From a virus (Duplodnaviria > Caudoviricetes): a DNA stretch of 64,000 nucleotides. A program made the translations under genes and the position numbers. Positions 40,448 to 49,320 of the stretch are shown here, piece by piece. Position 1 is the first letter of the stretch. Each line of letters opens with the position of its first letter. Under the pieces are notes generated by a model, which saw only the letters and a program-made list of their open reading frames with translations, searched no databases and was not told where the DNA came from. The stretch covers positions 1 through 64,000 of IMG/VR virus record IMGVR_UViG_3300010163_000012. One strand, given 5' to 3'.

Positions 40448-41779
40448 ATGGCTAACGCAGAATTATCAGATAAAGAACACATCACACAAAAGCTGGAAAG
40501 CATATTTATGACCAGCAAGAAAAGTGTCCATGAATATGTTAGGGAAATCGAGCGCAGATGTCGATTTCAGTCTTCATATCGCCACCTACAGAACGGTACG
40601 GTATTAGATGATCGTAGCCGTTTGATTGACATATATGATGCCTGCGTACAACAAGACGCTCATCTGCGTGGTGTCATGGAAACACTGTTTTCTCAGATTG
40701 TTGGAGAACGGTTTATGATGGCTAAGCAAAATGAGAAAGGGAAATATACAAAAGACATAGCTGCCACTCGAAAAATCCAAAACACGGAATTTTTGAAAGT
40801 GATACATGGTATCGCAGAATCTAAATTGTATGGTTATACTGGGCTGGAATTTTTGGTTGATCCAGAAGTAGAACGTGGTGGGCTTAAAGTCAATTTTGTG
40901 GAGCGTCGTAACATTTTGGCAGACCAACGGAAAATTGTGCAACGTCAAGGTATATGGATGCCACAGTGGAGTTTTGATGACCCTAAATATGCTGATAACT
41001 ATGTGCTCATCAACAGTGGGGAGTTGGGGCTATTCTCAGCTGTTGCCCCTTTAATTCTTGCAAAGAAATTCACCTTTGCTAATTATGTCAATTTCTCTCA
41101 CACATACGGACAGCCTATTATTCATGGCAAAACTGAATCTGAGAATACCGTTGACCGTAAGCGAATGGCAAATGATATAGCGAGTGCTGCTCAAAACAAG
41201 GTGATTGTTACCGGCCTTAATGATGAGGTTGATATAAAGACATTCACCATGTCGAACTCTGAGCATGTGTTTACCGGGCTTATTGCTATTGTGGATAAAG
41301 ATGTCTCCAATCTTATTTTGGGCTCAGAATCAATGGCTGGAGCGACACAATCGTATGTTGGCGCAACGAGAGCACATGAGAATATATTTCGTGACCGTAT
41401 AGAGGTCTATCGTGATTACATAGAGCTTGTAATGAACGAGACCGTAATACCTCGCTTAGTTCGGCTTGGCTATCTCCCGGATGGGTTAGAGTTCAAATAT
41501 GCTAAACGTATTGAAATGTCTGATGAAGATCGCATACGCCTTTTCCAAAATTTAACGACATCTTGGGAGATGGATCCTGAAACTATTGAACAGGAATTTG
41601 GTGTTAAGGTAAAACGGCAATTAAATGTAGTGCAAGAAGGCGCAGGGGGCATTGGTCCCACAGGTGGCGGAGGTGGCTATAGCCATACTGCAACCCGGCA
41701 TTTAACCGATGAAGAGTATTTCCGGAGATACGGCCATGCCCGTGAAACGCAAAATTTTCTTCGGGAGAGAGGGGAGTAG
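40448..41779 (+). CDS. Portal protein (DUF935/Mu gp29-like)
   Basis: First gene of the head module; QQDAHLRG, YGQP, SNLILG and HENI patterns. Confidence 0.8.
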   Translation: MANAELSDKEHITQKLESIFMTSKKSVHEYVREIERRCRFQSSYRHLQNGTVLDDRSRLIDIYDACVQQDAHLRGVMETLFSQIVGERFMMAKQNEKGKYTKDIAATRKIQNTEFLKVIHGIAESKLYGYTGLEFLVDPEVERGGLKVNFVERRNILADQRKIVQRQGIWMPQWSFDDPKYADNYVLINSGELGLFSAVAPLILAKKFTFANYVNFSHTYGQPIIHGKTESENTVDRKRMANDIASAAQNKVIVTGLNDEVDIKTFTMSNSEHVFTGLIAIVDKDVSNLILGSESMAGATQSYVGATRAHENIFRDRIEVYRDYIELVMNETVIPRLVRLGYLPDGLEFKYAKRIEMSDEDRIRLFQNLTTSWEMDPETIEQEFGVKVKRQLNVVQEGAGGIGPTGGGGGYSHTATRHLTDEEYFRRYGHARETQNFLRERGE

Positions 41780-41796
41780 GTCCATCCCCTCTCTCC
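41752..41796 (+). other. Predicted -1 programmed ribosomal frameshift signal (portal to MuF)
   Basis: In-frame A_AAT_TTT heptamer, 5-nt spacer, then a 12-bp stem GGAGAGAGGGGA/TCCCCTCTCTCC. Confidence 0.7.
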
Positions 41797-41934
41797 AATG
41801 TAGTAGCCTTACGGCAACCCGATGATAATAAGGACCAGCACGAAGAGGAAGTAGCAATACTTCTTCCTCTATTCCATGATTTCGTTATTAGCGTTGCCCA
41901 CCATGAAAACGAATGGAATTTATTAGAAGCGTTA

Positions 41935-42669
41935 ATGGAGGCTCGTGCTGATATTGCCATTAGAAGAGCGTGTGCCGGTTTTGGTGTTGATTTCGAGGAA
42001 GCATTACGTCTCATACGAAACGCCGAAGGTCTTGATAATGAACAGATAGTTCAGCGCAACATCGTTTTATCCGCAGTTGACAATCTTGTTGACTTTGCTG
42101 TAGCAGAAGAATACCAGATGGCTGATGATATGGCAGAGTTAGAAGATTCGCTTACAGAAGAGGAAGCAGAAGAAATGGCAGATGAAGACTGGTCCAATTT
42201 TTATCTGCCGGTCTTTTCTAAATTCCATGACCTGTATATGCGTACTGAGAACATGGATATAGAATATTCCATGATTATCGCAGCTTATTTGTCAACGATT
42301 AAAGACGACACGACTTTGATGTATATGACGCAAGGTGATGAAAGAGTGCGTCCGTGGCATCTTCAGTATGAAGGGTTCACAGCTCCCAAATCAAGGTTCC
42401 CTGCGTGGCTTATCCCACCAATTGAGCATAATTGTCGTTGCTATTTGGTAGAAGACACTGCAACAGTTATAGCTTCTATGCAAGCGTCCGCAATTCCAGA
42501 AATGCCAGATTGGTTTAACCGTACATTCAAAGAAAGTGTAGCACTTGGAGGGCGCATTTTCTCTGACGAACACCCATATTTTCAAGTTGATGAGCGGCAT
42601 GTGGGCCGTCTCAATGTCATAGCAAAGCGTATCAAAGAAAAATATCTGGAAGACGATGAGGACGAATAG
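41935..42669 (+). CDS. MuF-like minor head protein (frame open from 41746)
   Basis: TQGDERVRPWH...PPIEHNCRC motif. Confidence 0.85.
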   Translation: MEARADIAIRRACAGFGVDFEEALRLIRNAEGLDNEQIVQRNIVLSAVDNLVDFAVAEEYQMADDMAELEDSLTEEEAEEMADEDWSNFYLPVFSKFHDLYMRTENMDIEYSMIIAAYLSTIKDDTTLMYMTQGDERVRPWHLQYEGFTAPKSRFPAWLIPPIEHNCRCYLVEDTATVIASMQASAIPEMPDWFNRTFKESVALGGRIFSDEHPYFQVDERHVGRLNVIAKRIKEKYLEDDEDE

Positions 42670-43964: not shown

Positions 43965-45230
43965 ATGGATGCAGAAAATTTGAAATATGTAGTTGGTAAG
44001 GCTGAAGAGGGTCAACCGGCTATCATTCGCTTTTTTTCAGCCGTAGATGAGTATAGTGTTCGTTGCTTCAATGATGAGTTTTTGTGGTTGCAAGACTACG
44101 TGAAGCCTTCAAAGATTATCGTAATGATCAATTCTGAAGGTGGCTCTGTATTGTATGGAATGAGCACATTCTCAGTTATTCGCTCTTGTCCGATTGAAGT
44201 TGATTGTGTGATAGAGGGAATTGCTGCTTCAATGGCCAGTGTTATTTGGGCCGCTGGCGACAATCTTTACATGCACGATTATTCATTACTGATGATTCAC
44301 AATCCTTTCAACTCGAACGTTGATGATGCCGATCCATCAGTAAAGCAAACCGTTGAAGCGTTCCGTTCACAACTGGAAACCATTTATACTAAACGGTTTG
44401 GTCTTTCCAAAGACAAGGTTGCAGAAATTATGAACGGTGAAGGTGACGCAGATGGCACTTTCTTTAGCGCAAAAGATGCCGTGAAGGCTGGATTTCTCCC
44501 GTCTGAGAATGTCATAAAGACCTCTAAGAAGGTGCGTGACAAAGTAAAAAACGAGATGATAGGTATTGATAACGCTGCCGAAATGCGCAATATCATGTCT
44601 GCCGTGTCTGCTGAAGTGGACGAAAATAAACTTATCGAGGCTATTACTGCTATTCGTAATCAGAAAGATAATTATTCACTAATCCAAGAAAACAAAATGG
44701 ACAACAACGAAAAAAACATTTTCGACGCCATTTCAGCACAACTTGGGCTCGCGAAGGACACTCAGGCCGCAGCGATTGAAGCTCGTATTGCTGAGTTGAT
44801 CAATGCAGAAGCAGCACTCAAGGAAACTAAGAGTGAGCTTACTTCAACGAAGATCAAACTCGAAGGCAAAGAAGCCGCACTCGCTAACATCAACAGCGAA
44901 CTGACCGAGACTAAGGCAAAGCTTCAGGCGTACAAGGATGCAGAGCAAGCTGCTCGCACAGCTGAGATTGAATCCGTTATTGATGACGCAATCAAAGCAG
45001 GTAAAATTGAGGCTTCTGCAAAAGATGCTTGGACGAAGATGGCGGAGTCTGACTTTGCCACTGTCAAGAGCACTCTTGCATCAATCCAGGCTCGTGAAGT
45101 AATCACAGAGGTAATCGCCGGCGACCCAGCGAATGTTGGCAAAATCGAGGAAACATTGAAAGATGTTGATGCTCAGATGCAAGCCAAAATCAAGGAAAAG
45201 CTTGGTGATGTAGAATTTGAAAAATTTTAA
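43965..45230 (+). CDS. ClpP-type prohead protease with C-terminal scaffold
   Basis: INSEGGSV, GIAASMAS, LMIHNP; coiled-coil C-terminus. Confidence 0.9.
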   Translation: MDAENLKYVVGKAEEGQPAIIRFFSAVDEYSVRCFNDEFLWLQDYVKPSKIIVMINSEGGSVLYGMSTFSVIRSCPIEVDCVIEGIAASMASVIWAAGDNLYMHDYSLLMIHNPFNSNVDDADPSVKQTVEAFRSQLETIYTKRFGLSKDKVAEIMNGEGDADGTFFSAKDAVKAGFLPSENVIKTSKKVRDKVKNEMIGIDNAAEMRNIMSAVSAEVDENKLIEAITAIRNQKDNYSLIQENKMDNNEKNIFDAISAQLGLAKDTQAAAIEARIAELINAEAALKETKSELTSTKIKLEGKEAALANINSELTETKAKLQAYKDAEQAARTAEIESVIDDAIKAGKIEASAKDAWTKMAESDFATVKSTLASIQAREVITEVIAGDPANVGKIEETLKDVDAQMQAKIKEKLGDVEFEKF

Positions 45231-48757: not shown

Positions 48758-49320
48758 ATGGAAGAGAAAGAAACTTTTGAGCTTCAGACAATCGAAGAAA
48801 TCGATCCTAAGCTCCGTGCTGCTGTCGAGAAGAAGGTTGCAGAATTGAAAGCAAACAACCCCAAGGCAAAGATTTTCCCGCTCATGGTGGACGGTGATCA
48901 GGATGATGAGAAGGAAGTATATGTTGGCTATTTTTGTCAGCCTTCGTTCATTACGTTCTCCAAGTACATGACTTTCGCACAGAAAGACCAGGCATCTGCA
49001 ATGCGTCAGCTTGCACGCGACTGTTTCTTGGATGGCGACAAGGAACTTATTGATGACGACTCTCTGTTCCTTTTCGGTCTTATGGGCCAGTTGAACAACA
49101 TCATCCAGATGCGTGGTGGTCGTGTCATAAATTTATCGAAACCTGGGAAGTAAGAGAGGACGATTATTTTCGTCAAAAGATAATCCTCTTGCGACATTAC
49201 TTTCCAGGCGTTAATATCGACGATCTTGACGAAGAAGAATTTGCCAGACTTGTCTGTGATGCAGAATGGATGCACAGCCAAATGGTCATAACAAGACATG
49301 CAAATGCTTTAGGATTGTAA
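48758..49320 (+). CDS. Tail assembly chaperone (48758-49153) with -1 frameshift extension to 49320
   Basis: Between tube and tape measure; A_AAT_TTA at 49129-49135; the -1 frame is open to TAA at 49320. Confidence 0.75.

Follow-up and report, generated by a model that had tools for sequence, protein, structure and literature searches.

How a head protein whose reading frame opens without a start codon comes to be translated is the question raised by the locus described here. The window, that is, the whole stretch of DNA analysed, comprises 64,000 nucleotides (positions 1 to 64,000) of the IMG/VR virus record IMGVR_UViG_3300010163_000012 (Duplodnaviria; Caudoviricetes); the source record is 101,803 bp long and is estimated to be 92% complete. 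In the window, the portal gene and the gene for a MuF/gp7-like minor head protein (hereafter MuF) do not form one open reading frame (ORF): the portal stops at a TAG (41777–41779), and MuF lies in the −1 frame. Our analysis indicates that the slippery heptamer A_AAT_TTT near the 3′ end of the portal gene of this gut Bacteroides-type phage, together with the hairpin behind it, is very probably a programmed −1 ribosomal frameshift (−1 PRF) signal that joins the portal to MuF.

The portal–MuF junction

The features of the junction are as follows.

40448..41779, plus strand: portal gene (zero frame), 443 amino acids, Mu-type; matches PF06074 Portal_Mu (E 9.6e-44) and phrog_113 (portal)
41752..41758, plus strand: slippery heptamer A_AAT_TTT, which keeps the phase of the portal frame and puts AAT in the P site and TTT in the A site
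41759..41763, plus strand: spacer of 5 nt, the commonest spacer length among 44 distinct junctions
41764..41796, plus strand: putative stimulatory hairpin from folding, a perfect 12 bp with arms at 41764–41775 and 41785–41796
41758..42669, plus strand: −1 frame after the predicted slip, 303 codons and a stop, within a frame open from 41746 on; it encodes the MuF/gp7-like minor head protein
41780..41934, plus strand: start-less coding stretch (MuF N-terminal linker and first helix), assigned from codon pattern, homology, and an AlphaFold2 (AF2) model
41935..41937, plus strand: first ATG of the −1 frame, assigned from alignment and AF2 as the internal Met of an LExLM..RAD motif and not as a conserved start

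The portal ORF ends with CAA AAT TTT CTT CGG GAG AGA GGG GAG TAG, and its stop codon lies inside the 9-nt loop of the hairpin (41776–41784). The hairpin (arms GGAGAGAGGGGA/TCCCCTCTCTCC) has a minimum free energy (MFE) of −25.3 kcal/mol and a z-score of −3.75, and none of 200 dinucleotide-shuffled sequences folded as well. The −1 frame carries a TGA at 41743–41745 and is then open to 42669, with ATG, GTG, and TTG absent before 41935. The locus thus shows the features of a canonical −1 PRF site: an in-phase X_XXY_YYZ heptamer, a stable structure 5 nt on, a downstream ORF in an open −1 frame without a conserved initiation codon, and a signal conserved beyond what the proteins require (synonymous-site constraint and a covarying stem). 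The original prediction, which was made from the letters of the window and their ORFs, had placed the portal 3′ end, the heptamer, the 5-nt spacer, and the 12-bp stem at these same positions, and re-reading of the sequence confirmed all of them, as well as the opening of the −1 frame at 41746 with 63 codons lacking ATG, GTG, and TTG before 41935. Its identification of a canonical −1 signal was likewise borne out by heptamer phase, spacing, and structure.

In the proposed mechanism, most ribosomes would read AAT TTT and five further codons and stop at the TAG, giving the 443-amino acid portal. A fraction would pause at the hairpin starting 5 nt past the heptamer, where the P-site tRNA-Asn (AAU to AAA) and the A-site tRNA-Phe (UUU to UUU) would re-pair one base back. 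The slipped ribosomes would then read 303 more codons in the −1 frame, and the predicted transframe product would have 740 amino acids (437 + 303) with the junction ...ETQNF-SSGER..., in line with the size of about 740 amino acids originally suggested for the fusion. Since MuF has no start codon of its own in the window phage, the frameshift is probably the main or only route of MuF synthesis there.

The word AAATTTT is not rare in the 64-kb window (34 copies versus 38.6 expected). The case for the heptamer therefore rests on phase, position, and hairpin, and most of all on conservation.

Conservation of the heptamer and the hairpin

Relatives of the portal–MuF region were gathered from a phage collection, IMG/VR, GTDB genomes, a metagenome collection, and the window itself. 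With the metagenome collection set aside, NNA AAT TTT was present in phase with a long portal ORF in 125 of about 134 loci. In these 125 loci, which collapse to 63 distinct junction sequences of 62 nt, the MuF ORF occupies the −1 frame, and an identical arrangement (in-phase heptamer, MuF in −1) was found in all 38 of the complete loci from the metagenome collection. In all 63 junctions, the heptamer precedes the end of the portal stop by either 18 or 21 nt. The junctions comprise 20 lineages at <60% mutual MuF identity, and conservation reaches down to ~35% MuF identity. The host labels of the loci include Bacteroides, Phocaeicola, Prevotella, Segatella, Palleniella, Muribaculaceae, Alistipes, and others (Bacteroidales). 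The closest cultured relative is Bacteroides phage BS-TP1, with 81% nucleotide identity over the portal–MuF region; it is a temperate phage on B. salyersiae, and both phage and host have been cultured (PMC12694917). Conservation of the heptamer and the stem in related phages, proposed as a check in the original prediction, was therefore observed in every relative lacking a MuF start codon, across the 63 distinct junctions.

The heptamer was conserved at the level of spelling. In an alignment of 22 junctions, its seven columns formed the sole invariant run. The codon 5′ of AAT was of nine kinds (GTA, AAA, GCA, CAA, ACA, GGA, TCA, GAA, and CTA), every one of which conforms to NNA. The spelling was kept against the codon bias of the portal gene in locus L036 (AAT/AAC 5/15, TTT/TTC 2/15, third-position A 9%), in L075 (AAT, TTT, and third-position A at ~0.10, 0.08, and 0.11), and in L002 (AAT/AAC 4/22). 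When the codon-usage probabilities of the heptamer spelling were multiplied over the 20 lineages (<60% MuF identity), the result was 10^-26.8, a value that assumes independent lineages and is hence an upper bound on the significance.

The frame change itself could be narrowed down by stop codons. In BS-TP1 and L010, a −1-frame TAA stands directly 5′ of AAA, and the −1 frame opens 0–2 codons 5′ of AAA in 27 of the 63 junctions; these stops pin the frame change to the heptamer.

The heptamer was absent from nine loci, which represent four junction types, and all of these have a MuF ATG of their own. In L029, L030, and L032, the site reads GCT AAT TTC and the −1 arrangement is retained, with portal stop and MuF ATG overlapping (AAATGA). 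In L037/L041, L038–L040, and L074, a MuF ATG lies shortly 5′ of the portal stop, in the other frame. One of the in-frame portal–MuF fusions described below, L137, spells the corresponding site GCT AAT TTT, so that the Asn-Phe residues are retained and the heptamer is broken. Both L029 and L137 thus retain Asn-Phe but have T, not A, before AAT. These comparisons indicate that the heptamer is disrupted precisely in those loci that can do without it and that the slippery spelling is kept only where MuF has no start. A further candidate for a different junction type, L177, was rejected: it is a contig of 1.2x coverage with extra breaks, in which heptamer and hairpin are retained.

The downstream structure was also recovered among the relatives. 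Every heptamer-bearing junction folds into a hairpin of 9–16 bp, usually starting 4–5 nt after the heptamer, and over 44 distinct downstream sequences the median MFE was −17.6 and the median z-score −3.1. A comparable hairpin was absent from the heptamer-less junctions in the three of the four types that were folded (L074 was left out). The arms themselves diverge among lineages (GGGAGCGGAA/TTCCGCTCCC; GGAAGAGGAA/TTCCTCTTCC; GGGGAATGGAA/TTCCATTCCCC; GGAAGGAGAA/TTCTCCTTCC). RNAalifold on a plain MAFFT alignment returned just 7 consensus pairs because bulges shift the register; realignment with a covariance model gave 12 pairs, with compensatory change in 10 of them. The covariation score of the stem (0.273) was higher than that of all 500 shuffles (mean 0.164). 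Beside the main hairpin, a second small one (e.g., GTTGCT...AGCAAC) follows ~44 nt after the heptamer in L001 (3055–3075), L007, L010, and L016; it is weak in the window (41803–41818) and not conserved across the family.

Two observations concern prophages carrying such junctions. The junctions of L066–L070 are identical over 72 nt in Bacteroides propionicigenes, B. ndongoniae, Alistipes sp., Phocaeicola coprophilus, and B. gallinarum, and L066 shows 99.5% identity over 2.3 kb to MT835494 (the L002 locus), which suggests that L066–L070 and MT835494 are a widely spread temperate phage distinct from Hankyphage. Identification of L066–L070 as Hankyphage was considered and rejected, since the junction of Hankyphage p00 differs (T_TTT_TTC plus its own ATG). 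Reading by hand of p00 (L141, BK010646; 13257–13310, minus strand) of this ubiquitous phage showed a portal end of ...CGT TTT TTC GGG AAA GCC CCG GGG AGA GAC GGG ... TGG TGA, with an in-phase T_TTT_TTC and a CCCCG/CGGGG stem 7 nt on. From T_TTT_TTC the −1 frame is open as far as the ATG annotated for MuF, and this ATG and the portal stop overlap. In a more distantly related lineage, T_TTT_TTC may thus represent another type of heptamer.

The start-less MuF N terminus and other routes to MuF

The stretch 41780–41934 bears the marks of a translated sequence. Among 11 close sequences, the differences at −1-frame codon positions 1, 2, and 3 numbered 560, 259, and 1368, respectively. All relatives have a homologous stretch, whether or not MuF has a start codon there, and the encoded residues align with the N termini of start-bearing homologues, with column F41 invariant. 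In the AF2 model of the −1-frame product (mean pLDDT 87, pTM 0.86), residues 1–19 are disordered, and a helix at residues 27–50 is encoded by 41830–41901, wholly 5′ of 41935; the block-mean pLDDT over residues 21–50 is 91–98. Met62, encoded at 41935, falls within a second helix (54–77). Together, the alignments and the model indicate that 41780–41934 evolves as −1-frame coding sequence and that the 41935 Met is an internal residue. The original prediction had named MuF homologues starting at this Met as evidence that would count against it; the homologues with a canonical MuF start begin instead at or just before the portal stop.

The identity of the downstream protein was assessed with profiles and structure. 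The family alignment showed purifying selection along the whole length of MuF. The window protein scored 22.7 bits against PF04233 (under the cutoff of 29.6) and 25.1 against TIGR01641 (under 39.65), and PF04233 was matched by 12 of 14 family members with E values up to 0.01 (best 2.4e-07). A Foldseek search of the AF2 MuF model against the PDB gave no match at E ≤ 0.001, that is, no solved comparator. The genomic context is that of the MuF family, with the gene directly 3′ of the portal in the head module. From these profile scores and this context, the window protein is best called a divergent MuF-like protein, with the following core.

42307..42447, plus strand: MuF core motif region (GDERVRPWH ... 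PPIEHNCRC), the best Pfam/NCBIfam stretch, with invariant alignment columns

Several observations weigh against the frameshift. Re-pairing of the P-site tRNA-Asn on AAA leaves a wobble mismatch. Asn-Phe is conserved at the protein level even in relatives without the frameshift, so that part of the heptamer conservation is protein constraint. A control in which the 3′ arm of the stem was slid by −1 scored 0.320, as good as the 0.273 of the stem itself, probably because the hairpins of many members carry bulges; the formal covariation of the stem lends moderate support, and the evidence for the stem therefore comes mainly from the per-sequence folds. In addition, 26 of the 63 junction types have a GTG, TTG, or ATG in linker codons 11–26, at about the chance rate, and 11 have a GTG (ten types) or an ATG (one type) overlapping a TGA portal stop. 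Free MuF may also be made in some of these relatives, not obviously in the window phage.

Start codons of this kind give some footing to the view that no fusion is formed at all, that the heptamer is irrelevant, and that MuF is translated separately, either through termination-reinitiation or coupling where the portal frame stops, or by initiation at a near-cognate codon of the linker. The ATG overlapping the portal stop in L029, L030, and L032 is used in the same frame arrangement, the TGA-stop junctions with GTG or ATG point in the same direction, and Bacteroidetes depend little on Shine-Dalgarno pairing. However, the window and 26 of the 63 junction types have no ATG, GTG, or TTG before codon 27, and portal stops of the TAG or TAA kind yield only an overlapping GTA, ATA, TTA, or CTA. 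The close relatives L017 (GTG) and L022 (GTA) differ at precisely this site, and both keep the heptamer. Separate initiation would also leave unexplained why an in-phase heptamer defies codon bias, why the preceding codon is always NNA, and why heptamer and hairpin are lost together where an ATG exists, and we consider it quite unlikely. A start at the 41935 ATG, with the 155-nt gap untranslated and heptamer and hairpin acting as an RNA element in mRNA stability or processing, is more improbable still. This ATG is the first canonical start and the choice of gene callers, and MuF of BS-TP1 is annotated likewise from an internal ATG; yet the gap evolves as −1-frame coding sequence and aligns with the N termini of start-bearing homologues, and initiation at Met62 would delete the helix at 27–50 and cut that at 54–77. 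The Met is moreover not conserved, being replaced by another residue in L002, L034, L035, and L036, and the first in-frame starts are scattered among the relatives. As for an RNA element, the hairpin is not followed by a U-run and so is not an intrinsic terminator.

Short runs of A and T at the junction, and the indel errors that metagenome assemblies hold (as in L177 at 1.2x coverage), could be taken to mean that the frame change stems from transcriptional slippage or from a sequencing or assembly error, or that MuF is a decaying pseudogene. This is scarcely credible: the arrangement is repeated in 63 distinct junctions, in independent assemblies, in the cultured BS-TP1, and in isolate genomes, and the purifying selection over all of MuF speaks against a pseudogene. 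Tracts that support transcriptional slippage are far longer than the runs of 3 A and 4 T found here. Readthrough of the stop codon or another genetic code was also rejected, as the portal stop varies among TAG, TAA, and TGA and the next zero-frame stop comes seven codons on. Neither separate initiation, nor a start at 41935, nor error, transcriptional slippage, or gene decay accounts for an in-phase heptamer maintained against codon bias, for the NNA rule, and for the alternation of heptamer and ATG. A programmed −1 frameshift thus accounts best for the junction.

The predicted fusion and known systems

The portal of the window matches Portal_Mu (PF06074, DUF935) over the full length of the profile (positions 2–336 of 336; 150.5 bits, cutoff 23.9). 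The head module runs in the order portal, MuF/gp7-like ORF (to 42669), two small ORFs, ClpP-like prohead protease, and a capsid-like gene. Three features may bear on the fate of the predicted portal–MuF fusion.

41639..41677, plus strand: Gly-rich stretch of the portal C-terminal tail (G398–G410), a probable flexible linker judged from the composition of the translation
41708..41734, plus strand: DEEYFRRYG motif of the portal tail, just 5′ of the slip site and kept in relatives
43965..45230: ClpP-like prohead protease, downstream in the head module

The tail motif reads DEEY[FY][KR]RYG in all relatives. This motif, which follows the Gly-rich stretch within the tail (41639–41734), could be a docking or cleavage determinant.

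Portal C termini face the capsid interior in established structures such as those of SPP1 and P22. If the fusion makes up the minority of the product, MuF would be carried on the C termini of a few of the twelve portal subunits and point into the capsid; this arrangement is drawn from the docking of SPP1 gp7 and from the orientation of portal C termini. The covalent MuF would replace the non-covalent portal–gp7 docking known from SPP1, the frameshift ratio would set the stoichiometry of MuF, and the Gly-rich portal tail would act as a linker, a role that the modelled disorder of the first 19 transframe residues fits. The ClpP-like prohead protease may subsequently sever the tether. A bolder version of this scheme, which we put forward as tentative and rather doubtful, holds that the frameshift is the sole source of MuF, that a defined minority of the twelve subunits bear tethered MuF within the procapsid, that the protease later cuts the tether and so frees MuF as an internal or ejected protein, and that the family uses three interchangeable dosing modes. 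The tether would then consist of the Gly-rich tail, the DEEYFRRYG motif, and the first 19 disordered transframe residues, and MuF would be dosed in one mode by a separate gene coupled to the portal, in the second by a −1 frameshift extension, and in the third by fusing the two proteins in frame, possibly with an escape site of the dnaX type. The portal of Mu, gpH, undergoes C-terminal processing, which offers a parallel to such cleavage.

In-frame fusions of the two proteins, which the original prediction had suggested looking for among relatives, do exist. A search for longer homologues of the −1-frame product yielded P0003–P0005, of 753, 763, and 729 amino acids, which were compared at the protein level. 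They consist of a Portal_Mu domain followed by a MuF of the window family (46, 47, and 37% identity) and are collinear with the predicted transframe products, with DEEY.[KR]RYG (nearly the same motif as in the window portal), a charged linker, and the MuF N-terminal helix. No in-frame locus of this kind was found among the ~125 DNA loci of the clade or in the IMG/VR and metagenome scans, which returned frameshift-type relatives only. In more distant prophages of Bacteroidales genomes, single ORFs verified in DNA (L139, 1315–3930, plus strand, 871 amino acids; L137, 163–2673, minus strand, 836 amino acids) each combine Portal_Mu, Phage_Mu_F, and a PBECR2 nuclease (toxin-type) domain. Where the portal part meets the MuF part, L137 and L139 have an A_AAA_AAG or A_AAA_AAA, with −1 stops 1–7 codons on, which by analogy with dnaX could truncate the fusion. 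An annotated "Head morphogenesis protein / portal protein" of Peternella_1 was rejected as an in-frame fusion, as it consists of two separate genes of ordinary length. In-frame portal–MuF genes have been published for the Microbacterium phage clusters EA3/EA5/EA8 and EB (PMC7302621).

The mechanism proposed here, a canonical −1 PRF, is of a known kind; what is new is the pair of genes involved and the product predicted from it. To our knowledge, conserved programmed frameshifts in tailed phages are few, comprising the G/GT tail chaperone and some capsid and tail-tube extensions. The literature searched, in which in-frame fusions and tail-chaperone frameshifts were found, gave no published description of a portal frameshift, and the BS-TP1 paper (PMC12694917) mentions none. 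If the portal frameshift is real, it would be a second deeply conserved phage frameshift, in the head module and new to phage assembly biology, in which a MuF/gp7-type internal protein is covalently tied to the portal, and it would explain how phages of this family dose and target MuF. Toxin domains, PBECR2 nucleases among them, can occur in related MuF proteins (Jamet et al. 2017, via PMC7911831); PBECR2 is also the domain seen in L137 and L139. For annotation, it would imply that hundreds of phage and prophage genomes from gut Bacteroidales, BS-TP1 among them, currently have their MuF gene cut short at an internal Met.

A parallel lies in the window itself. Its G/GT-like tail-chaperone gene (48758–49153) has an in-phase A_AAT_TTA at 49129–49135, seven codons before the stop; the −1 frame continues for 61 codons, as far as 49320 and thus nearly to the tape-measure gene (49427), and BS-TP1 has an identical site with identical surroundings. 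These phages evidently use this motif class for the tail-chaperone frameshift that is well established in tailed phages. The G/GT −1 frameshift has been described for lambda and for the majority of long-tailed phages (Levin et al. 1993; Xu, Hendrix & Duda 2004, via PMC7911831, PMC6316719). Like it, the portal signal would be a conserved −1 slip on X_XXY_YYZ near the 3′ end of a structural-module gene, giving a fixed ratio of a short and a C-terminally extended protein from a downstream ORF without its own start. It differs in joining portal and MuF in the head module rather than lying between the major tail protein and the tape measure, in that both products are expected in the virion rather than as chaperones, and in that the extension is a whole folded protein of 303 residues and is preceded by a strong conserved hairpin.

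Among portal systems, the in-frame fusions (the Microbacterium genes, P0003–P0005, and the ORFs of 836 and 871 amino acids) share the order of portal then MuF. In them, every subunit would carry MuF unless truncated, whereas the window requires recoding and its fusion is presumably a minority product. The gp7 of SPP1 docks on the portal gp6 and enters the procapsid in few copies (PMC6316719). As in SPP1, the MuF gene of the window directly follows the portal gene, but SPP1 gp6 and gp7 are two separately translated proteins held together non-covalently, unlike the covalent product proposed here.

Outside phages, AAAUUUU is the slippery site of ronivirus ORF1a/1b (PMC3169540). The two eukaryotic virus sites compared here, that of roniviruses and that of Rous sarcoma virus, have the same or nearly the same heptamer as the portal site and a downstream RNA structure, but act on eukaryotic ribosomes for polymerase expression and share neither homology nor host with it. 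The gag-pol site of Rous sarcoma virus is A_AAU_UUA; on re-pairing, tRNA-Asn meets the same wobble mismatch there and at the ronivirus site. In E. coli, dnaX produces tau and gamma in a set ratio through a −1 frameshift with a downstream hairpin. The portal junction would resemble dnaX in being one gene with a bacterial-type −1 PRF, a 3′ hairpin, and two products; the shift truncates the protein in dnaX, whereas at the portal junction it would extend it.

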